32,000 nt of DNA, from assembly GCA_043808785.1 (NCBI GenBank), contig JAZDEL010000003.1, positions 30,001-62,000 of the forward strand, written 5' to 3'. The notes under the pieces were generated by a model that had not been told where the DNA came from, made no database searches, and worked only from the letters and a program-made list of their open reading frames with translations. Positions 9,027-19,013 of this stretch are shown here, one piece after another. Every line of letters starts with the position of its first letter. Position 1 is the stretch's first letter. A program made the position numbers and the translations under genes. Source of the DNA: Candidatus Iainarchaeum sp. GTDB lineage: Archaea > Iainarchaeota > Iainarchaeia > Iainarchaeales > JAZDEL01.

Positions 9027-10235
9027 CTAACCGCCATAAGGCAGCCCGCAATATGAGGGTGCGCACGTGTCATTGTCGCCGTCCTGCTTCGCCAAATCGC
9101 AGCGGCAGACAAAGTCCTTGTAGAGCTGTCCCTCGTTGCAGGCGTAGTATTTGCTCGCGTTCTTGCCTGCGCTGCAATACTGCTCGACGATTTTTTTGCA
9201 GGTTCCGTAGCACTTATCCTGCAGGCACTGCCCGGGTTCCTTGTTTTCGGGAGGCGGGCAAGCGCCCGTCATGCCCCCGCTGTAAGCGTCGCAAAAGTCG
9301 TCTATTGCATAATACTCCTTGCCCGGAATGGTCTGGGCTGCGGTGTTCTTCCCCACATATACGGTACCTGCCACCTTGGCTTGCGTGAAATCCCCGCCGC
9401 CGTCGGTGTCGTAGCAGTTAACGCACTTTTTAGTTCCAAGGTCGCACACCATCCCTTTCGAAACGCAGTCCTCGTGCTTTGTGCATTCGCTTCCGCCTGT
9501 GCCCGACTTTTTGCACTGCCCTCCGTTGGCCGTATTCTCGCAGCCGTATGTGCAGCTGTAATTATGGAACATCCAGTCATAATCCCTGCAATAATATTCC
9601 ATTAACCCGCCGGTTGCCTGGCATTCGTCCGTCTTCTCAAGCAGTTTGTCCTGCCCTTTTCTGGAGTAGGTTACCTTTCCCGCAACATATTGCCGGTCCC
9701 CCCCGTCGGTGTCCTCGCAGAACTGGCAGTATGCGCCCTTGCCGTCGCAGAGCCTGAGCGTGCCGCTGTTCAGCCCCGCACTTATTCCGTTAGTGAGTTC
9801 CGCAAGCGCGATGTCGAGCTTCGCCTTGTCCGCAAGGTCGGCATCTGTCCAGCCCCTGCTTGACAGGTACGCATTCTTAACCTCGACCCAGCCGTAGCAG
9901 TAACCCCTGTAGCAAACCCCGTAATGGTTTCCCCACTCGGCAGGGACAGGTGCCGCAGCCCGCGCATATGCAGCGCGCACCGCGGGAATCTGGAAAACTT
10001 TCACGAATTCAACAACACGCGCAGGGTCGGCAATTCCGCGCGCCTGCAGGAAAACGTTCTGCGTTCCCGCCGTAGGCTTCAGCGCCTGCCCGATATTCCC
10101 GCCCGAAAGCGCGAAATAGCCCGCCACGATAACAACAACCACTAAAACAAAAATCAGCGCGTTCTTGGCGTTCATTTTAATGTTGAGTTTTGTCGGCTTT
10201 TTTTGGCCAGCTTGTTTTGCATGCTTTTTTGGCAT
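9027..10235 (-). CDS. Membrane-anchored, cysteine-rich extracellular protein of unknown function with two C-x-DTDGG modules
   Basis: 402 aa from ATG 10235, which lies downstream of the gltX stop. Basic N-terminus plus TM helix (ALIFVLVVVVIVAGYFAL). I counted 26 Cys by hand. Repeated motifs are CEDTDGGD...VAGKVTY...EYYC and CYDTDGGGD...VAGTVYV...EYY...C. Confidence 0.65.
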   Translation of the reverse strand: MPKKHAKQAGQKKPTKLNIKMNAKNALIFVLVVVVIVAGYFALSGGNIGQALKPTAGTQNVFLQARGIADPARVVEFVKVFQIPAVRAAYARAAAPVPAEWGNHYGVCYRGYCYGWVEVKNAYLSSRGWTDADLADKAKLDIALAELTNGISAGLNSGTLRLCDGKGAYCQFCEDTDGGDRQYVAGKVTYSRKGQDKLLEKTDECQATGGLMEYYCRDYDWMFHNYSCTYGCENTANGGQCKKSGTGGSECTKHEDCVSKGMVCDLGTKKCVNCYDTDGGGDFTQAKVAGTVYVGKNTAAQTIPGKEYYAIDDFCDAYSGGMTGACPPPENKEPGQCLQDKCYGTCKKIVEQYCSAGKNASKYYACNEGQLYKDFVCRCDLAKQDGDNDTCAPSYCGLPYGG

Positions 10236-10290
10236 AAAACCACGACTAATTAATGGCGCAATGTTGTATATTAACCTTAACCTTCTTCCC

Positions 10291-11961
10291 TCACCTGTGC
10301 GCAAAATAGCAGTGAACAAAGTGCTTGTCTATAGCATCCACGCGCGCGAAACCCAGCCTGTCAAGGTTCAAAATATCCCCCACATTTACCTCAACAGCAT
10401 CCATCATTCCGTAAACCTTTGAATTGTCCCCGAGTGTAACTTCCGCATCCCTCCCGTCCCCTTCCGTAAGCCAGGGCATTATGTCATCCTCCTTTTTTGT
10501 CGTCCCCACAAATTCGCCCATAACCTGCAGCGCGTCCTTATGTGTTATCTTCACATTGTACGCGTCCTTGAGCCTTATCACTTCCCCCTCAAGATATCTT
10601 TCAAGCAATTTCTTGGGCACAAGGAACTGCTGGGTGCCCTCGTTCAAGGTTACAACCCCGCCCTCCCTTTCGACTTCGGTTTCGTGCGCGAACTGCACAT
10701 CAAGCCTCAAAGGGTCCTCAATGAATGAAACATGCCTGCTTGCTTCACCTACGTATTTCCTGTTCAGGTCGAAGAGCATGTTCATTTCAACAGTTGCATC
10801 GGAAGGCTTAACGCCCAAATGAATTATCACCTCCCTTATTGCCTTGCTCGAAAAGCCGCGCCTTCTCAGCGCCCTTATGGTTCCCAAGCGCGGGTCGTCC
10901 CAGCCCTCATACTCGCCCTTTTCAATTCCTTCCTTTATTTTGGAGGTGCTCAGCACCATCCCTTCAAGGCTTATCCTTCCGAAATGGAACGCGTGCGGAT
11001 ATTTCCATCCGAAATATTTGTACAAAAACTCCTGCTTTGTCCGGTTCTGCGCGTGCTCCTGCCCGCGCAGGATGAGCGTCACGCCCATCAGATGGTCGTC
11101 CACAGCTGACTGAAACATATAACTCGGCCAAACATGATACTTATCCCCCACGCGCGCGTGCCGGGGCTCATCAACAATGCGCGCAATCCACCAGTCCCTT
11201 ATGCTAGGGTCGGGGTCCTCAAGGTTGGTTTTGATGCGCAGCACTGCGCTGCCTTCCTTGAGTTCGTGCTCCATCATTTTCTCGAACTGCTTCAGCACTT
11301 CCTTCGGCTTCTTCTCCCTGCACTTGCAGCCTTTTTTCTCCCGTATGAGTTCGCGCCATTTCTCCGCATTGCAAGTGCAAACATAAGCCCCACCCTTTTT
11401 TATGAGTTCGAGCATGTGTTCATAGTAAATGCCCATCCTGTCGCTTGCGAAGTAAGTTTCATCAGGCCTGCACCCTAACCAATCCAAATCCTCGCGGAAA
11501 ACTTCTTCAGCATCAGCCATCGGCTTCTTAACTTTCGGGTCGGTGTCCTCGAACCTCAGTATGAATTTCCCGCCGTATTTCGCCGCATATTCATAACTCA
11601 AAATCGCGGCGCGCGCATTTCCAAGGTGCAAAGGCCCGTTAGGGTTCGGGGCATAGCGCGTGACAACCTTCTCTTTTGCAGCCCACTCAAGTTCCTGCAA
11701 ACCCTCCACCTTGTCCTTGGGCTTCAGTTCGTAACCCTCCTCCTCGAACTTCTTGTATTCCTTTTCGATTTCATCCGGCGGCATCCCGTTAACCCTGCGA
11801 ACCGCCTCCTCGATTACGGGCATCGCCTTTTTCACGTCAAGCCCCTTCTCGAGCGCGAGCATTTTCCCCACAAGCGCCTTTATGTCCGCCTTGCCGCTGT
11901 GGAGGAAAGCGTTCTTTATTGCATATTTGTAGGCGTTGCGCCCGAGTTTCTCCATATCCAT
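10291..11961 (-). CDS. gltX: Glutamyl-tRNA synthetase, archaeal type
   Basis: HIGH motif (PNPNGPLHLGNARAA), KMSKS-like motif (VLSTSK) and the archaeal N-terminal helical domain (YAIKNAFLHSGKADIKALVGKMLA). Start taken at ATG 11961; the track start at 11979 is GTG. Confidence 0.9.
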   Translation of the reverse strand: MDMEKLGRNAYKYAIKNAFLHSGKADIKALVGKMLALEKGLDVKKAMPVIEEAVRRVNGMPPDEIEKEYKKFEEEGYELKPKDKVEGLQELEWAAKEKVVTRYAPNPNGPLHLGNARAAILSYEYAAKYGGKFILRFEDTDPKVKKPMADAEEVFREDLDWLGCRPDETYFASDRMGIYYEHMLELIKKGGAYVCTCNAEKWRELIREKKGCKCREKKPKEVLKQFEKMMEHELKEGSAVLRIKTNLEDPDPSIRDWWIARIVDEPRHARVGDKYHVWPSYMFQSAVDDHLMGVTLILRGQEHAQNRTKQEFLYKYFGWKYPHAFHFGRISLEGMVLSTSKIKEGIEKGEYEGWDDPRLGTIRALRRRGFSSKAIREVIIHLGVKPSDATVEMNMLFDLNRKYVGEASRHVSFIEDPLRLDVQFAHETEVEREGGVVTLNEGTQQFLVPKKLLERYLEGEVIRLKDAYNVKITHKDALQVMGEFVGTTKKEDDIMPWLTEGDGRDAEVTLGDNSKVYGMMDAVEVNVGDILNLDRLGFARVDAIDKHFVHCYFAHR

Positions 11962-13978: not shown

Positions 13979-14530
13979 CTATATTTCTTCAACCCCAACC
14001 GGGGCACAAACTATTGAAAACTCGCCGTTCGCCTGGTTGAAATATATCCTTACCTTTTCACCTTCGTGGAAACTTGGCGAGCCTTCCACCCATTCGCCGA
14101 TTGCCCCGACCATTCCGCCTGGCGTTACAATTTGAAGTTTATCTTCCGTAAACGGCGCCCCTTTGGCATAATTTTCAATTCTCATATCGGCATAGGTAAA
14201 AATAGAAGTTCCATCTTCATTCCGTTTGCTTTCCACTTTTTCAATAGTTCCTTCGATTATATAATCTGCTGTTTCGGTTATGTAAGATTTATTATCGCAG
14301 TCCCCTATCAATAGCCCACCTTCAGCCTTTACTATTATTTTGCCTTCTGGCAAAGGAGCCGCAGGTTTGCTTAAATCTTCACCATTTACCGGTATTTTGC
14401 CTTCCGGTAAGGGAGCCGCAGGTGTCACAGTTGTCGGAGTTGTCGTGCCACCGCCCGCCAAAACAACCAAGGCAGCGATGCAAACCGCAAGCGCAACCGC
14501 CGCAAATGCAACCAGCCAAAATTTCTTCAT
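13979..14530 (-). CDS. Membrane-anchored surface protein P2, diverged paralogue of the metzincin partner proteins
   Basis: 183 aa from ATG 14530 (MKKFWLVAFAAVALAVCIAALVVLAGGG). It has a Thr/Pro stalk, a 19-aa tandem repeat (PAAPLPEGKI...), and a C-terminal domain I could align by hand to P1a/P1b (AKG, GG.xG and GEKV blocks). Confidence 0.7.
   Translation of the reverse strand: MKKFWLVAFAAVALAVCIAALVVLAGGGTTTPTTVTPAAPLPEGKIPVNGEDLSKPAAPLPEGKIIVKAEGGLLIGDCDNKSYITETADYIIEGTIEKVESKRNEDGTSIFTYADMRIENYAKGAPFTEDKLQIVTPGGMVGAIGEWVEGSPSFHEGEKVRIYFNQANGEFSIVCAPVGVEEI
14337..14422 (-). repeat. 57-nt-period tandem repeat inside P2 (encodes PAAPLPEGKI twice)
   Basis: The 29-nt cores at 14337-14365 and 14394-14422 differ at 3 positions. 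Confidence 0.8.
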
Positions 14531-14585
14531 ACTCGTGCTTCCTATTAAGATGTTCCATACATACAAAAGAATGGAAAGAAAAGTT

Positions 14586-15242
14586 TCATTGGCCCGTTAC
14601 AGAGGCCAATACCTCTTCAAGCGGCAGTTTCTGGTATTGCTCCGGAACCTCGAGCCGCACAGCCTGATTGTCGCTTGTGATTGTGAATTTTCCGTGCTTC
14701 CAGCCCACAACGCTGTAATGCGCTCCGCCGTTGGTTGAGGTTTTATCAGAAGGGTCGTTTGTTGTGAGGAACAGCAGGACTTTTTCGCCGACTTCAAACT
14801 TAGCCGCGTCCTCAACATCCATTGAATGATCCCCGATTTTTCCCCCGAGGGTGCGGACAACAAGCCTTGACGGAACTGAACCTTTTGCCGTGCTGTCGAC
14901 CTGAATAATCGCATCAGTATAGATTTGGGCATCGCTTGCCACATCTGCGGGTCGCCCCCCATCGGGAGTATCCCACTTGCTGGGGAGAATCTCCGTCACA
15001 CGCCCGATAACCACGCTTTCCGAGTGTTTATTGAGGAAGGAAAGGTCCAATACTTCAGTGGACCACAGAGGGTAGATTGTCTTTGTCGTGGGCGATATTG
15101 ATTGTGTCGCCGTTGTTGTGGGTGACATTGGCGGTGTCGCCGTTGTCGGGCCGCCGCCCGCCAAAACAACCAAAGCGGCAATGCCTACAACAAGCGCAGC
15201 CGCCGCAAATCCAGCCAGCCAAACTTTCTTCATATTTTTCAT
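14586..15242 (-). CDS. Membrane-anchored metzincin-partner protein P1a (signal anchor, Thr/Pro stalk, unassigned ectodomain)
   Basis: 218 aa: MKNMKKVWLAGFAAAALVVGIAALVVLAGGG, then PTTATPPMSPTTTATQSISPTTKT, then a ~150-aa domain. AGGAGG lies 7 nt upstream of the ATG. About 80% identical to P1b by hand alignment. Confidence 0.75.
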   Translation of the reverse strand: MKNMKKVWLAGFAAAALVVGIAALVVLAGGGPTTATPPMSPTTTATQSISPTTKTIYPLWSTEVLDLSFLNKHSESVVIGRVTEILPSKWDTPDGGRPADVASDAQIYTDAIIQVDSTAKGSVPSRLVVRTLGGKIGDHSMDVEDAAKFEVGEKVLLFLTTNDPSDKTSTNGGAHYSVVGWKHGKFTITSDNQAVRLEVPEQYQKLPLEEVLASVTGQ

Positions 15243-15257
15243 ATATGTGCCTCCTGC

Positions 15258-15830
15258 TCAGGCCGTCCCATAAATATATTTAATGCCCGCTATGTCGTCG
15301 GAGTGTAATGTTCTCTTCTTTGTCTCGCCCGTGCTGATGTAACCATACATTGTCTTTTCGGTGTCGGACGAGCCGTAAAGGTCGTTCAATTTCAACCAGT
15401 GGCCAAACTCATGCGTGGCTGCGTTTTGAACATCATAATAACCGCTTTGGCCGGTTGTAGACCATGAAACGTTATAGCTGAAGTTTGTTAAAACCTTGTA
15501 AATTCTATAAGATTGTGCACTTATTAGTGTTTGGGCTATTTGCCCGGCAGGAAGGCTTGCCTTGCCTATGATGTCCAACGTCGTCGACCTTTTGGTAAAG
15601 GCAAATTTTGACCCGGCATTATTCCAGGCAGCGGCGGCACTATTTATGGAATTGTACCAACTTGCTGGTATTGAACCACTCCAATAATAGGGTACCCCCC
15701 ATTTATCCGCACCGTAACTGTATGCACTGACAGGCGCCGATGCAATCACACAAAATAGCGCCAGTAATAACAGCGCGCCCGCGCCCCGCCCGATTTTTCT
15801 TCTATTCATGATTTCCTCCGAGTGGCTCAT
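15258..15830 (-). CDS. Secreted snapalysin/matrixin-like mini-metzincin M1a
   Basis: 190 aa. Signal peptide ...LLLLALFCVIASAPVSA|YSY; zinc motif HEFGHWLKLNDLY; Met-turn TMYGY; AAAAWNNAGSKFAF helix. The ATG overlaps the P1b stop (ATGA). An alternative start is Met8 (15809). Confidence 0.8.
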   Translation of the reverse strand: MSHSEEIMNRRKIGRGAGALLLLALFCVIASAPVSAYSYGADKWGVPYYWSGSIPASWYNSINSAAAAWNNAGSKFAFTKRSTTLDIIGKASLPAGQIAQTLISAQSYRIYKVLTNFSYNVSWSTTGQSGYYDVQNAATHEFGHWLKLNDLYGSSDTEKTMYGYISTGETKKRTLHSDDIAGIKYIYGTA

Positions 15831-16483
15831 TTGCCCGTTACCGCACCTAATACCTCTTCAAGGGGCAATCTCTGGTATTGCTCCGGAACATTGGGCCTCA
15901 CGGCAAAGCTGTCGTCCGTGATTGCGAATCTTCCGTGCATCCCGGCGACCACCCAGTAATGCGCCCCGCCATTGCTTGTGGTGTTATCGGACGGGTCGTT
16001 TGTCGTGAGGAACAGCAGCACCTTTTCGCCGACTTTAAACTCGGCCTCGCCCTCCGCAATCATGCCATCGTCCCCAACCTGCCCGCCAAGTGTGCGGACA
16101 ACCACACTGGAGGGAACGGAGCCTTTCACGACCTTGTCAACCTGAATAATTATATCCGTATAGATGGAGGCATCGCTTGCCACATCTGTGGGCCGCCCCC
16201 CATCGGGAGTATCCCACTTGCTGGGGAGAATCTCCGTCACACGCCCGATAACCACGCTTTCCGAGTGTTTATTGAGGAAGGAAAGGTCCAATACTTCAGT
16301 GGACCACGTGGGTGAGATTGTCTTTGTCGTGGGCGATATTGATTGTGTCGCCGTTGTTGTGGGTGACATTGGCGGTGTCGCCGTTGTCGGGTCGCCACTT
16401 GTAAAAGCAAATAAAGCGGCAATGCCGACTACAAGCGCGGCCGCCGCAAATCCAGCCAGCCAAACTTTCTTCATATTTTTCAT
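15827..16483 (-). CDS. Membrane-anchored metzincin-partner protein P1b
   Basis: 218 aa with the same architecture as P1a. Its start and stop are offset exactly 1241 nt from those of P1a. Confidence 0.75.
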   Translation of the reverse strand: MKNMKKVWLAGFAAAALVVGIAALFAFTSGDPTTATPPMSPTTTATQSISPTTKTISPTWSTEVLDLSFLNKHSESVVIGRVTEILPSKWDTPDGGRPTDVASDASIYTDIIIQVDKVVKGSVPSSVVVRTLGGQVGDDGMIAEGEAEFKVGEKVLLFLTTNDPSDNTTSNGGAHYWVVAGMHGRFAITDDSFAVRPNVPEQYQRLPLEEVLGAVTGK

Positions 16484-16498
16484 ATATGTGCCTCCTGC

Positions 16499-17071
16499 TC
16501 AGGCCGTCCCATAAATATATTTAATGCCCGCTATGTCGTCGGAGTGTAATGTTCTCTTCTTTGTATTGCCCGTGCTGGTGTAACCATACATTGTCTTTTC
16601 GCTGTTAGACGAGCCGTAAAGGTCGTTCAATTTCAACCAGTGGCCAAACTCATGCGTGGCTTCGTTTTGAACATCATAATAACCGCTTTGGCCGGTTGTA
16701 GACCATTGGTAGTTAGAGTTGAACGTTATTTTAGCCTTGTAAATTCTATGATCTGTGTCTGCATACGTTGTTGACATGGCTACTGTCCCGGCAGGAAGGC
16801 TTTGCTTGTACAGAAAGTTCAACGTCGTCCCAGCTGTCGCAGATTTGACAAAGGCAAATTTTGACCCGGCATTATTCCAGGCAGCGGCGGCACTATTTAT
16901 GGAATTGTACCAACTTGTTGGTATTGAACTATTCCAATAATATGATGCCCCCCATTTCCACCCACTGTAACTGTATGCACTAACAGGCACCGATGCAATT
17001 AAGCAAAATAGTGCCAATAATAGCAGTGCGCCCGTTTTCCTTCCGATGTTTCCATTTCCCATGAAACTCAT
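16499..17071 (-). CDS. Secreted snapalysin/matrixin-like mini-metzincin M1b
   Basis: 190 aa. Signal peptide ...LLLLALFCLIASVPVSA|YSY, with HEFGHWLKLNDLY and TMYGY motifs as in M1a. First gene of the cassette. Confidence 0.8.
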   Translation of the reverse strand: MSFMGNGNIGRKTGALLLLALFCLIASVPVSAYSYSGWKWGASYYWNSSIPTSWYNSINSAAAAWNNAGSKFAFVKSATAGTTLNFLYKQSLPAGTVAMSTTYADTDHRIYKAKITFNSNYQWSTTGQSGYYDVQNEATHEFGHWLKLNDLYGSSNSEKTMYGYTSTGNTKKRTLHSDDIAGIKYIYGTA

Positions 17072-17094: not shown

Positions 17095-17101
17095 ATTTAA
17101 A
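17095..17101 (-). promoter_or_regulatory. Candidate TATA box (TTTAAAT) for the metzincin cassette
   Basis: Minus strand reads AAGTTTAAATGTCAAATCATACTACATAAATAG-ATG. The box centre is about 27 nt upstream of ATG 17071, which suggests a leaderless transcript. Confidence 0.45.
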
Positions 17102-17228: not shown

Positions 17229-18020
17229 CTAGTACCTCTCCCTTATTCCGCCTTCCCTGCGCCCGCCGCCGAACCTGCCCCCGCCCCTTGAGCCGAAACC
17301 CCTGTCGTCCCTGTCCCTGCCGAACCTTCCGCCTCTCCTGTCCCCGTCACGCCCCCTGCGCTCATGCCTCTCCATCGCTTCCTCCCTTTCCCCTTCCTTC
17401 ATCTTGTACTCGAAATCCTCGAGGCTCTTTGTGAATTCCGCATCGGACTTTATGGTTCCGCGGTTCTTCAAATACTCCCTGGCAAGGAGCCAGTAAATAA
17501 GCGCAAGGCTTTTCCTCCCCTTGTTGTTCACGGGCACGGCCAAATCCGCGTTCCTTATCGAATTATTCGTGCTCGCAAGCACAACAACAGGAATCTTGAC
17601 CCTTGTCGCTTCCGATATCGCCTGCTCGTCGGGCTCGGGTTCCGTAACAATAATCACGCCAGGCTCGATGAAGCCCTTTGCCCTCGGGTTCGTGAACAGC
17701 CCCGGCACGAACCTGCCAGTAACCGCCCTTGCCCCGATGGCTTCGGCAAACTGCCTTACAGGTTCCCTGCCGTAAAGCCTTTTTGAAACCGCAACAATCT
17801 TCGAGGGTTCGAACTGCGAAATAAAGTTGGCAGCTGCGCGCACCCTTGCATCAAGCACCTGCACATCAAGCACATTCAGGCCGTCCTTCCTTACCTTGTA
17901 AATGTACTTCCTCATGTCCCCCGCCTTGAACTTTGTGCCTATGTGGGCGCCAGTCTTCAGGTAGATGTCCACATCTACCAATGTGTCCTGCTTCTTTGCC
18001 TCAGCGGTTTCTTCAGCCAT
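17229..18020 (-). CDS. rps2: 30S ribosomal protein S2 (uS2) with Arg/Gly-rich (RGG) C-terminal tail
   Basis: The core (YLKTGAHIGTKF...VIIVTEPEPDEQAISEATRVKIPVVVLASTNN) is uS2. The last ~47 aa are RGG/RD-rich. ATG at 18020; the track start at 18029 is GTG. Confidence 0.9.
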   Translation of the reverse strand: MAEETAEAKKQDTLVDVDIYLKTGAHIGTKFKAGDMRKYIYKVRKDGLNVLDVQVLDARVRAAANFISQFEPSKIVAVSKRLYGREPVRQFAEAIGARAVTGRFVPGLFTNPRAKGFIEPGVIIVTEPEPDEQAISEATRVKIPVVVLASTNNSIRNADLAVPVNNKGRKSLALIYWLLAREYLKNRGTIKSDAEFTKSLEDFEYKMKEGEREEAMERHERRGRDGDRRGGRFGRDRDDRGFGSRGGGRFGGGRREGGIRERY

Positions 18021-18295: not shown

Positions 18296-18363
18296 AATAA
18301 AAAACACAAAAAACAAAAATCGGGTTTTGTTGGTTTTTGGTTCGGTTTGCTTTTCGGCAAACC
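18296..18363 (-). terminator. Hairpin (GGTTTGC-6 nt-GCAAACC) followed by oligo-T runs between rps9 and rpoN
   Basis: 7-bp stem at 18344-18363. On the minus strand it is followed by GATTTTTGTTTTTTGTGTTTTTTATT. Oligo-T tracts are typical archaeal termination signals. Confidence 0.4.
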
Positions 18364-18416
18364 AAAAAACCAAACCATCCAACGGCGTTTTGTTTTTTAT
18401 TTTTGTTTTCCAATCT

Positions 18417-18986
18417 TCACCTCTTGCTTTTTTGTTTTTTCTTCCTCGCTTTTGTTCCCAGCGGCTTCTTTGGTTCGGTCCTGCGCGAGTCATCCACAAG
18501 CAGGAGCCTGTCGTACTTAAGCATCGCAATCCTGAGTTTGTCGTTCTTCCTGAATTCAAGCAGCGCCTTCGCAATCGCGCCGCGTGCAGCCGCAGCCTGC
18601 GCCATCGAGCCCCCGCCCCTTGCCGTTACCGTAATATCCACCTCTTTCGGCAAAGGTTCCGCCATCTCCAGGGGTTCCATTATAAATTCCCTGATATATG
18701 CCGGCTCCACAATCGCAAGGCTGCGCTTGTTTATCCTCACCTTTCCCGTGCCCCTCTTTATGACCGCCCTCGCAACCGCGGTTTTCTTTTTCGCCTTTGT
18801 CGTTATCCCGCGCGCCCTGCTTTTTTTCTTTTCGGGCTTTTTCCCTTCCGCAGCGGGCTTCTCAACTGGCTTTTGCGCCTCCTTTCCCGCCGCTTTCTCG
18901 GTCTCCGCTGTCCGCGCCTTCTCGGCCTCTGCAGCCTGCGCCTTGGCAGCAGCTTCAACAGGCATAACATTTTCCTCATCCATCAT
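18417..18986 (-). CDS. rps9: 30S ribosomal protein S9 (uS9) with Ala/Lys/Glu-rich N-terminal extension
   Basis: The C-terminal 130 aa (AVARAVIKRGTGKVRINKRS...GGGSMAQAAAARGAIAKALL...DSRRTEPKK) are uS9. An N-terminal low-complexity stretch of ~55 aa precedes them. ATG at 18986; the track start is GTG. Confidence 0.9.
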   Translation of the reverse strand: MMDEENVMPVEAAAKAQAAEAEKARTAETEKAAGKEAQKPVEKPAAEGKKPEKKKSRARGITTKAKKKTAVARAVIKRGTGKVRINKRSLAIVEPAYIREFIMEPLEMAEPLPKEVDITVTARGGGSMAQAAAARGAIAKALLEFRKNDKLRIAMLKYDRLLLVDDSRRTEPKKPLGTKARKKKQKSKR

Positions 18987-19013
18987 CCTCACCGTTTCCG
19001 CCCATTTCCAAAA

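Follow-up and report, generated by a model that had tools for sequence, protein, structure and literature searches.

The stretch of DNA analysed here (hereafter the window) comprises 32,000 nucleotides of Candidatus Iainarchaeum sp. (assembly GCA_043808785.1, contig JAZDEL010000003.1, positions 30,001 to 62,000 of the forward strand), and coordinates are counted from its first letter. It carries a tandem array in which genes for a small protease of the matrixin family (M) alternate with genes for a probably membrane-anchored partner (P), whose fold is predicted to belong to the NTR/TIMP-like OB class. The genes follow one another in the order M1b-P1b-M1a-P1a, all on the minus strand in the open reading frame (ORF) map of the window, and together with a third partner paralogue, P3, the array amounts to two proteases and three partners. 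In the NCBI annotation, the proteases (for M1b, an identical protein) are termed 'matrixin family metalloprotease' and the partners are termed 'hypothetical protein'. Homologues of M and P were found to be linked far above chance, and P may serve as a surface-anchored regulator of the protease. The features of the locus are as follows.

17095..17101, minus strand: TTTAAAT, a TATA-box-like element 23 nucleotides before the ATG of M1b (read from sequence)
16499..17071, minus strand: M1b, secreted matrixin-family (M10) mini-metalloprotease of 190 amino acids (assigned by Pfam and profile alignment)
16491..16496, minus strand: AGGAGG, Shine-Dalgarno-like, 7 nucleotides before the ATG of P1b, within a 15-nucleotide spacer
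15827..16483, minus strand: P1b, partner of 218 amino acids (AlphaFold2 and Foldseek; no sequence match)
15258..15830, minus strand: M1a, second matrixin copy, 190 amino acids as ORF (Pfam PF00413)
15250..15255, minus strand: AGGAGG, 7 nucleotides before the ATG of P1a, in the second copy of the spacer
14586..15242, minus strand: P1a, second partner copy, 218 amino acids (80% identity to P1b)
13979..14530, minus strand: P3, third and diverged partner paralogue, 183 amino acids from its ATG (repeat families and profile match)

An earlier note on this DNA, made from the letters alone, had described a duplicated two-gene module of four minus-strand ORFs. The four ORFs (190, 218, 190 and 218 amino acids) lie where it had placed them and the duplication stands, but P3 (13979-14530) had been overlooked. 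The motifs that it quoted are also present, namely the signal peptide LLLLALFC..IAS.PVSA with its cleavage point before YSY, AAAAWNNAGSKFAF, HEFGHWLKLNDLY and the Met-turn TMYGY in the proteases and the stalk PTTATPPMSPTTTATQSISPTTKT in the partners, as are the 15-nucleotide spacers with AGGAGG 7 nucleotides before each partner ATG and the TTTAAAT box (17101-17095) upstream of the first ATG. The spacer between M and P (GCAGGAGGCACATAT) has the same letters in both copies, and expression of M and P appears to be coupled via these identical AGGAGG spacers. Judged by archaeal promoter geometry, the TTTAAAT box before M1b points to the whole array being transcribed with a short leader or with none. 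The proposed coupling of P1b to M1a through an ATGA overlap is more doubtful: the overlap exists, but M1a has an alternative in-frame ATG at 15809, preceded at a 5-nucleotide spacing by GGAGG (15819-15815), and this competing start looks at least as good as the overlapping one.

Both proteases scored above the gathering cut-off (24 bits) of Pfam PF00413 (Peptidase_M10), with 42.1 bits for M1b and 37.5 bits for M1a. A profile of 33 M homologues aligned over its full length to the catalytic domain of the matrix metalloproteinase (MMP) MMP-8 (E 1.7e-13), and the same profile matched karilysin with an E value of 4.5e-10. The signal peptide of M1b comprises residues 1-32 and is followed by the mature N-terminus YSYSG, the zinc motif HEFGHWLKLND and the Met-turn TMY. 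In the 33-homologue alignment the signal peptide abuts a conserved mature YSYSG.KW, and P-linked relatives of M have a median of 29 amino acids before the mature N-terminus. Neither a pro-domain nor a cysteine switch (PRCGxPD) was found in the M1 sequences or in this alignment, the sole Cys lying inside the signal peptide. The description of M in the earlier note as a complete mini-metzincin devoid of a pro-domain is thus upheld, and on its sequence M is a complete small secreted zinc protease of the M10/matrixin family with a variant zinc motif.

The zinc motif of M, HExxHxxxxxD, departs from HExxHxxGxxH by Lys for Gly8 and Asp for His11, and His at motif position 11 was found in a minority of relatives (P0030, P0056 and P0063). 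Within the Met-turn, T160 is invariant in the 33-homologue alignment and M161 and Y162 are each retained in at least 90%. In the profile alignment M lacks the S-loop, the site of structural zinc and calcium: about 11 residues are deleted opposite qrdhgdnspfdg of MMP-8, and no His cluster was found there. The fold was compared on a fused homologue, P0057, which is 45% identical to M and stands in for the window protease: the best Foldseek match of its AlphaFold2 model was karilysin (4in9_A, E 1.7e-7, target-normalised TM-score 0.72), and its catalytic domain gave target-normalised TM-scores of about 0.7 against MMP-13, MMP-3 and MMP-8. Two other assignments were rejected, snapalysin (M7, PF02031; 11.2 bits against a cut-off of 25, E 0.4) and the MXAN_2677/2678 myxosortase-dependent metalloprotease (NF041905; 36 bits against 250, C-terminal part only). 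Archaeal matrixins like M, chiefly from Methanosarcinaceae, have been described as horizontally transferred (PMC12587646).

The two copies of the M/P module share 84% nucleotide identity, with 74% amino-acid identity between the proteases and 80% between the partners. All ORF ends of copy A recur in copy B at +1241 nucleotides, as had been claimed, and the direct-repeat families agree with this shift. The equal length of the proteases is partly a coincidence, M1a having four additional residues at the N-terminus and four fewer in a variable region. Divergence between the copies was found to be mosaic. From protease codon 125 onwards, across the spacer and as far as partner codon 100, the nucleotides of the two copies are nearly identical, and the differences between P1a and P1b all fall in codons 101-218, codons 1-100 being nearly identical. 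Protease codons 84-124 differ by 23 non-synonymous and no synonymous-only codon changes plus two indels; the ratio of non-synonymous to synonymous substitution rates (dN/dS) is about 1.05 for the whole protease pair and 0.34 for the partner pair. Mapped through MMP topology and the secondary structure of the modelled homologue P0057, codons 84-124 would correspond to beta-strands 3-5, one of which is the edge strand along the active-site cleft.

Judged from these sequences, the duplication is real and aged: the similarity greatly exceeds chance, and the divergence is too great for a duplication made in assembly. Mosaic copies with only 84% identity, and similar arrays at other loci, led to rejection of the artefact reading, and the duplication noticed earlier stands. 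The mosaic fits gene conversion plus diversifying selection, or cassette replacement, acting on the specificity surfaces of two cognate pairs, and the location of the differences in the predicted cleft strands of M and the C-terminal half of P suggests that the specificity of the two pairs is diverging. Such a pattern would also be expected for an effector/immunity-like module.

In the partner P1b, about 21 hydrophobic residues at the N-terminus are followed by a disordered stalk rich in Thr and Pro, which reaches to about residue 55, and by a predicted OB ectodomain of residues 56-218 (15830-16318). Membrane anchoring of P is probable in view of its hydrophobic length of about 21 residues, M having about 13 and then an AxA-type cleavage site; no lipobox was found in P1a or P1b, both of which contain 0 Cys. 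The P family has an invariant R-T-x-G-G-x-V-G-D loop, and no cleavage site is conserved across it. Sequence searches gave no significant match of P in Pfam, NCBIfam or PDB with either the single sequence or a profile (0 matches in the profile search of PDB), in line with the earlier note, which had left the partner unassigned. Syntaphilin, T7SS_Rv3446c, CU044_5270, DUF3592 and NtA were weak candidates and were rejected as sub-threshold; the Pfam NtA match (E 0.054), seen in one of 12 P members, is the sole hint in the sequences to the NTR class.

An AlphaFold2 model of P, built from a 22-sequence alignment, is beta-rich, with a predicted local distance difference test (pLDDT) score of about 80-95 for residues 53-218 and below 50 for residues 1-50. 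When this model was compared with PDB structures by Foldseek, the N-terminal domain of agrin (NtA; 1pxu and 1jb3) was among the best matches, with an E value of 2e-4 and target-normalised TM-scores of 0.58-0.59. Further matches comprised the NTR domain of PCOLCE, the C345C domain of complement C3, the NTR domain of meteorin, and TIMP-2 (2e2d_C) and TIMP-1 (3ma2/2j0t_D, target-normalised TM-score 0.54), these TIMP chains coming from MMP complexes, and generic OB-folds such as those of ribosomal proteins and MCM ranked below the NTR/TIMP matches. The fold of P is accordingly predicted to be of the NTR/TIMP-like OB class, with P itself outside the TIMP family.

P3 shares the N-terminal anchor of P1a and P1b and has a TTTPTT stalk; its OB domain is shorter and contains 3 Cys. 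P3 matched a partner profile built without it at E=4e-11 and A3 at E=2e-28, and it belongs to the repeat families D3 (N-terminal anchor) and D6. Its sequence includes a tandem 19-residue AAPLPEGKI repeat (AAPLPEGKIPVNGEDLSKP followed by AAPLPEGKIIV...). P3 has no protease of its own and is bordered on both sides by T-rich terminator-like runs. A P3-like copy was also found 2.6 kb downstream of an M/P pair in a Methanoperedens contig (L002, 9211-9870).

A hidden Markov model (HMM) of P was searched against 1.84 billion representative proteins and, counted as clusters at 50% identity, recovered 10,094 clusters at E<=1e-3 and 1,980 at E<=1e-10. The top matches are mostly of about 217 amino acids with an N-terminal hydrophobic segment, and all named members of the family are annotated as 'hypothetical protein'. 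Among 148 representatives, a lipobox-like motif was found in 13 and fusion to a matrixin in 7.

The earlier note had proposed surveying gene neighbourhoods for partner homologues next to mini-metzincins, and the survey anchored on the partner (one genome per species, 29 assessable loci) gave a divided answer: 14 loci had a matrixin either co-directional within 400 nucleotides or joined to P in one ORF, and none was present at the other 15. Isolate genomes with linked loci included Methanosarcina sp. T3, M. spelaei MC-15 (two loci) and Methanosarcina sp. MSH10X1. A second survey was anchored on the protease and covered 80 metagenome loci, of which 28 were too near a contig end to be judged; at least 30 of the remaining 52 had P adjacent or fused. 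The arrangements comprised 21 of M followed by P, as in the window, 3 of P followed by M, 7 P-M fusions and 1 M-P fusion. At 22 protease loci with enough flanking sequence no P was found within 400 nucleotides, 9 of these having a P domain farther off in the same large ORF. Overall, 12 loci from genomes and 24 from metagenomes keep the adjacency, and tandem M-P-M-P arrays were also found at two further loci (L011 and L093).

Fusions are a recurrent feature of the family. In 101 fusions of the P0057 type, a signal peptide is followed by the P domain, a short linker and a YSYSG matrixin, so that P occupies the position of a pro-domain; the reverse order, with P at the C-terminus, was found in L009, L096, P0179, P0187 and P0234. 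Very large surface proteins that combine the P domain and a matrixin with PKD, FG-GAP and Ig-like domains were also identified (P0187 and L026). In a metagenome-assembled genome of Clostridia (L024, 598-1851), a matrixin with the canonical motif HEIGHLLGLGH is followed after a gap of 18 nucleotides by a P with the lipobox FLPSC. The link between M and P is far above chance and evolutionarily persistent, and it is not obligatory; chance adjacency is negligible because P is rare, accounting for about 10^4 of 1.8x10^9 clusters. Conserved adjacency and natural fusions thus bear out the functional link proposed in the earlier note. Its statement that the two are 'always co-translated and co-duplicated' has to be given up, since about half of the P homologues and of the assessable M homologues are linked and orphan P genes are common in Methanosarcina.

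P also occurs away from proteases. Two tandem P domains with no protease nearby were found in Methanosarcina (L008, 5881-7074, and L016, 5827-7089) and in P0175 and P0176. In Tissierella praeacuta (L027, 5214-6908; similarly L028-L030), a distant P domain forms the extracytoplasmic part of a 214-residue protein, whose gene overlaps the end of a gene for a sigma-70 factor of the extracytoplasmic function (ECF) type, that is, in the anti-sigma position, with a DUF4358 lipoprotein-like gene coming next. The Tissierella loci suggest that, outside protease operons, the OB domain has a further use as a sensor or a cleavable ectodomain.

The module lies between a block of rpS2, RpoN, S9 and L13 genes and the genes for Memo, TrmB and GluRS. 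GC skew is about -0.05 in the module (14000-17000) and about -0.25 (-0.2 to -0.3) in the flanks, essentially all genes of the window being on the minus strand. The flanking genes of the window, including S2 and Memo, were near the module in 0 of 112 related loci. Because of the weaker skew and because these flanks are not common to related loci, it is plausible that the module is an accessory insertion, as the earlier note had put it, and perhaps foreign or recent. An origin from a phage or mobile element, as in a Listeria pair described below, was rejected: tblastn searches of M1b, P1b and the Clostridia pair against 50,697 phage records gave nothing significant, Foldseek against BFVD gave no significant match, and the flanks are ribosomal and RNA polymerase genes on one side and Memo, TrmB and GluRS on the other.

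Some features of the flanking genes were recorded as well. Ribosomal protein S2 ends in a long Arg/Gly/Asp-rich tail, ERHERRGRDGDRRGGRFGRDRDDRGFGSRGGGRFGGGRREGG (17229-17400, minus strand), which is RGG-like and unusual for archaeal S2. Ribosomal protein S9 (18417-18992, minus strand) has an Ala/Lys/Glu-rich N-terminal extension of about 65 residues, the Pfam S9 match starting from residue 68, and a Lys-rich C-terminal tail. The gap between RpoN and S9 (18299-18407) contains an A/T-rich inverted repeat with 20-nucleotide arms, 85% complementary and 69 nucleotides apart. On the other side, an ORF of 430 amino acids (9027-10319, minus strand) overlaps the start of GluRS and had no Pfam match at E<=1e-5.

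We give a probability of about 0.5 to the reading that P is the cognate surface-anchored regulator of M, acting as an inhibitor or a self-protection factor. Such a role is favoured because P replaces the pro-domain in fusions, because its predicted fold is of the TIMP class and because potempin A (PotA), the inhibitor of karilysin described below, provides a precedent. An inhibitor or self-protection factor was among the possibilities raised in the earlier note, and the predicted TIMP/NTR-like fold lends it support. M would be exported by Sec and, having neither pro-peptide nor cysteine switch, would be catalytically competent as soon as its signal peptide is removed. P would be produced from the same transcript and held at the membrane on a Thr/Pro stalk of roughly 50 residues, where the loops of its OB domain would bind M, making P a stoichiometric inhibitor or latency factor. 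This binding could shield the envelope of the producer and localise or time the activity of M, and M might in turn cut the stalk of P, as happens to Tim of Listeria, with release of the complex or of the OB domain.

Several observations weigh against the regulatory reading. P1a and P1b contain 0 Cys, and so have neither the inhibitory N-terminal Cys of TIMPs (Cys-x-Cys) nor disulfides. Alignment of P by hhalign with the N-domains of TIMP-1 to TIMP-4 (approximate sequences) gave a probability of 0.2%, after which P as a TIMP homologue (MEROPS I35, PF00965) was dropped and the fold-level likeness alone was kept. About half of the P homologues are orphans or lie in other contexts, so that P is not exclusively a protease partner. 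Matrixins devoid of P would be expected to carry a pro-peptide instead, and this complementarity was not clean: the N-terminal extension has a median of 61 amino acids in P-less matrixins (n=11) against 29 in P-linked ones, with overlapping distributions. The model of the natural fusion P0057 (pLDDT 80.6, predicted TM-score 0.63) is compatible with or without a fixed interface between the domains, and the C-terminal P of M-P fusions would suit an exosite or ancillary role equally. Finally, in the Mtz-Tim pair of Listeria monocytogenes (LMRG_00713/00714), a secreted metzincin cuts a TIMP-like lipoprotein, from which a fragment is released that brings about cell-wall phenotypes; the lipoprotein acted there as a substrate or effector and was not demonstrated to be an inhibitor (PMC8235301).

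The Listeria pair is also the model for the explanation that survives best beside the regulatory one, according to which P is an inactive tethered precursor whose stalk is cut by M, the OB domain, alone or with M, then acting on the envelope or on neighbouring cells. Mtz strips about 50 N-terminal residues off Tim, and the phenotypes need both proteins and Mtz catalysis (PMC8235301); the anchor and stalk of P1a and P1b, about 55 disordered residues, match the length of the Tim tether, and a P domain alone or after an ECF sigma factor fits a domain that is sensed or cleaved. However, P-M fusions place P at the pro-domain position, which favours regulation of M, the family has no conserved cleavage site, and no phage or mobile-element association like that of Listeria was found. 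We consider this account possible but rather unlikely.

Alternatively, P could be a non-inhibitory anchor, or an adaptor that presents substrates, holding M at the surface. It would then be comparable to NTR domains by which metzincins are enhanced and not inhibited, as in PCOLCE, whose NTR domain is among the best structural matches of P. M is anchorless and P offers a long hydrophobic segment with a stalk, and the C-terminal P of M-P fusions resembles ancillary domains; PCPEs stimulate metzincin activity, according to PMC2871463. Against this, the fusions are mostly of the P-M type, with P directly before the mature N-terminus, and Tim relatives of Firmicutes are reported to be unanchored, which indicates that anchoring is not the conserved function. 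A role of P as a tether or exosite is thus unlikely in our judgement.

It is improbable that P is a trans-acting folding chaperone that stands in for the missing pro-peptide, by analogy with pro-domains that serve as intramolecular chaperones, and is then degraded. The absence of a pro-domain from M and the pro-domain position of P in fused relatives would agree with such a function, but 5 of the 11 assessable close matrixin relatives without P nearby also lack an N-terminal extension, and MMP catalytic domains generally fold without pro-domains. Coincidental adjacency or an assembly artefact, with no functional module at all, might be considered since the source is a metagenome-assembled genome and, for either gene, about one homologue in two is unlinked, but this is effectively refuted by the linkage surveys, in which order, fusions and tandem arrays recur in Methanosarcina isolates and dozens of metagenome contigs, as well as by the 84% identity and mosaic divergence of the copies and the rarity of P.

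Two wider propositions may be added to the regulatory reading. P could be a true prokaryotic homologue, possibly the ancestor, of the animal NTR/TIMP module, the pairing of a matrixin with an OB regulator then being pre-metazoan. We hold this to be doubtful and give it low weight because the likeness is confined to the level of the fold and OB-folds can converge. If true, MMPs and TIMP-like regulators may have entered eukaryotes together, and TIMPs would not be a metazoan invention. The fast-diverging pairs might, in addition, be secreted protease effectors with membrane-bound immunity proteins in inter-archaeal antagonism, a view that is compatible with NTR/TIMP ancestry.

A secreted metzincin with a co-transcribed, membrane-tethered beta-barrel or OB partner is already known from Tannerella and Listeria and, more loosely, from serralysin/AprI. 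The earlier note had known of no described system with this architecture, which is not sustained in view of karilysin-PotA, Listeria Mtz-Tim and AprA-AprI. Within the searchable literature, what appears to be new is the archaeal occurrence of the pairing, the large unnamed NTR/TIMP-class family of P, the frequent fusion of P to matrixins at the pro-domain position and the tandem diverging pairs. Prokaryotic matrixins have been used to argue the origins of MMPs and to date archaeal clades, with no mention of TIMPs or other regulators (PMC12587646). The present analysis ties a clade of pro-domain-less archaeal and bacterial matrixins, by operon and by fusion, to an unnamed extracytoplasmic family of about 10,000 clusters, which would merit a new domain entry covering thousands of 'hypothetical proteins'. 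If P is an inhibitor, it would explain how a pro-domain-less protease spares its producer and would add a new family to the protein inhibitors of MMPs, comparable to potempin A in the case of MMP-12; the origin of the MMP-TIMP system would then be experimentally testable in culturable Methanosarcina that carry the pair.

Among known proteases, M resembles snapalysin (M7) and the Asp-zincins in its size of about 155 mature residues and in the Asp at the third zinc-ligand position, but it groups with M10 and some of its relatives have His at that position. As a pair, M and P recall the vertebrate MMP-TIMP system in combining a matrixin catalytic domain with an OB-fold partner of the NTR/TIMP class. 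Unlike TIMPs, P has no N-terminal Cys-x-Cys, disulfides or C-terminal TIMP domain, and whereas TIMPs are separate secreted proteins whose genes are not linked to those of MMPs, P is linked to M.

AprA and its inhibitor AprI are organised in an operon. Inhibitors of the AprI type are periplasmic eight-stranded beta-barrels and not OB/NTR proteins, and the protease belongs to M10B, has RTX repeats and is exported by type I secretion. In PMC8235301, AprA-AprI (Inh, SmaPI) is given as a bacterial metzincin with an endogenous inhibitor that engages the protease in a TIMP-like manner.

Karilysin, which came out as the closest structure to the protease domain of the fused P0057, has a pro-peptide and a C-terminal domain, and M has neither. 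In Tannerella forsythia this MMP-family protease is co-transcribed with PotA, an OB-fold lipoprotein inhibitor, as one of the KLIKK peptidase/potempin pairs (PMC9890683). Both systems consist of an M10 peptidase gene adjoining a co-directional gene for a small OB-fold protein with a membrane anchor, fold and anchor being predicted in the case of P. PotA has a five-stranded OB-fold and is a specific inhibitor of the genetically linked karilysin, whereas for P inhibition is what we infer. Potempin genes lie upstream of the peptidase and P downstream of M; PotA is an outer-membrane lipoprotein of 98 residues, whereas P, with 218 amino acids, is predicted to be anchored by a transmembrane segment and combines a Thr/Pro stalk with a larger OB domain of the NTR-like type. 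PotA was absent from the top 50 structural matches of P, and the P profile gave 0 matches among PDB sequences.

The comparison with Mtz-Tim was made by published description. Like Mtz-Tim, the module pairs a Sec-secreted metzincin that looks pro-domain-less with a promoter-less following gene for a tethered protein predicted to be TIMP-like; the N-terminal tether is of about 50 residues, and the pairs are conserved over many taxa. The Clostridia pair with a lipobox on P (L024) matches published Mtz-Tim-like pairs in Firmicutes. The Met-turn is AIMLD in Mtz and TMYGY in M, and the Listeria pair is tied to prophages and mobile elements and governed by a CI/Cro switch, no such context being seen at the window locus. 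Unlike Mtz-Tim, the module described here is archaeal, is tandemly duplicated and includes an extra partner paralogue.

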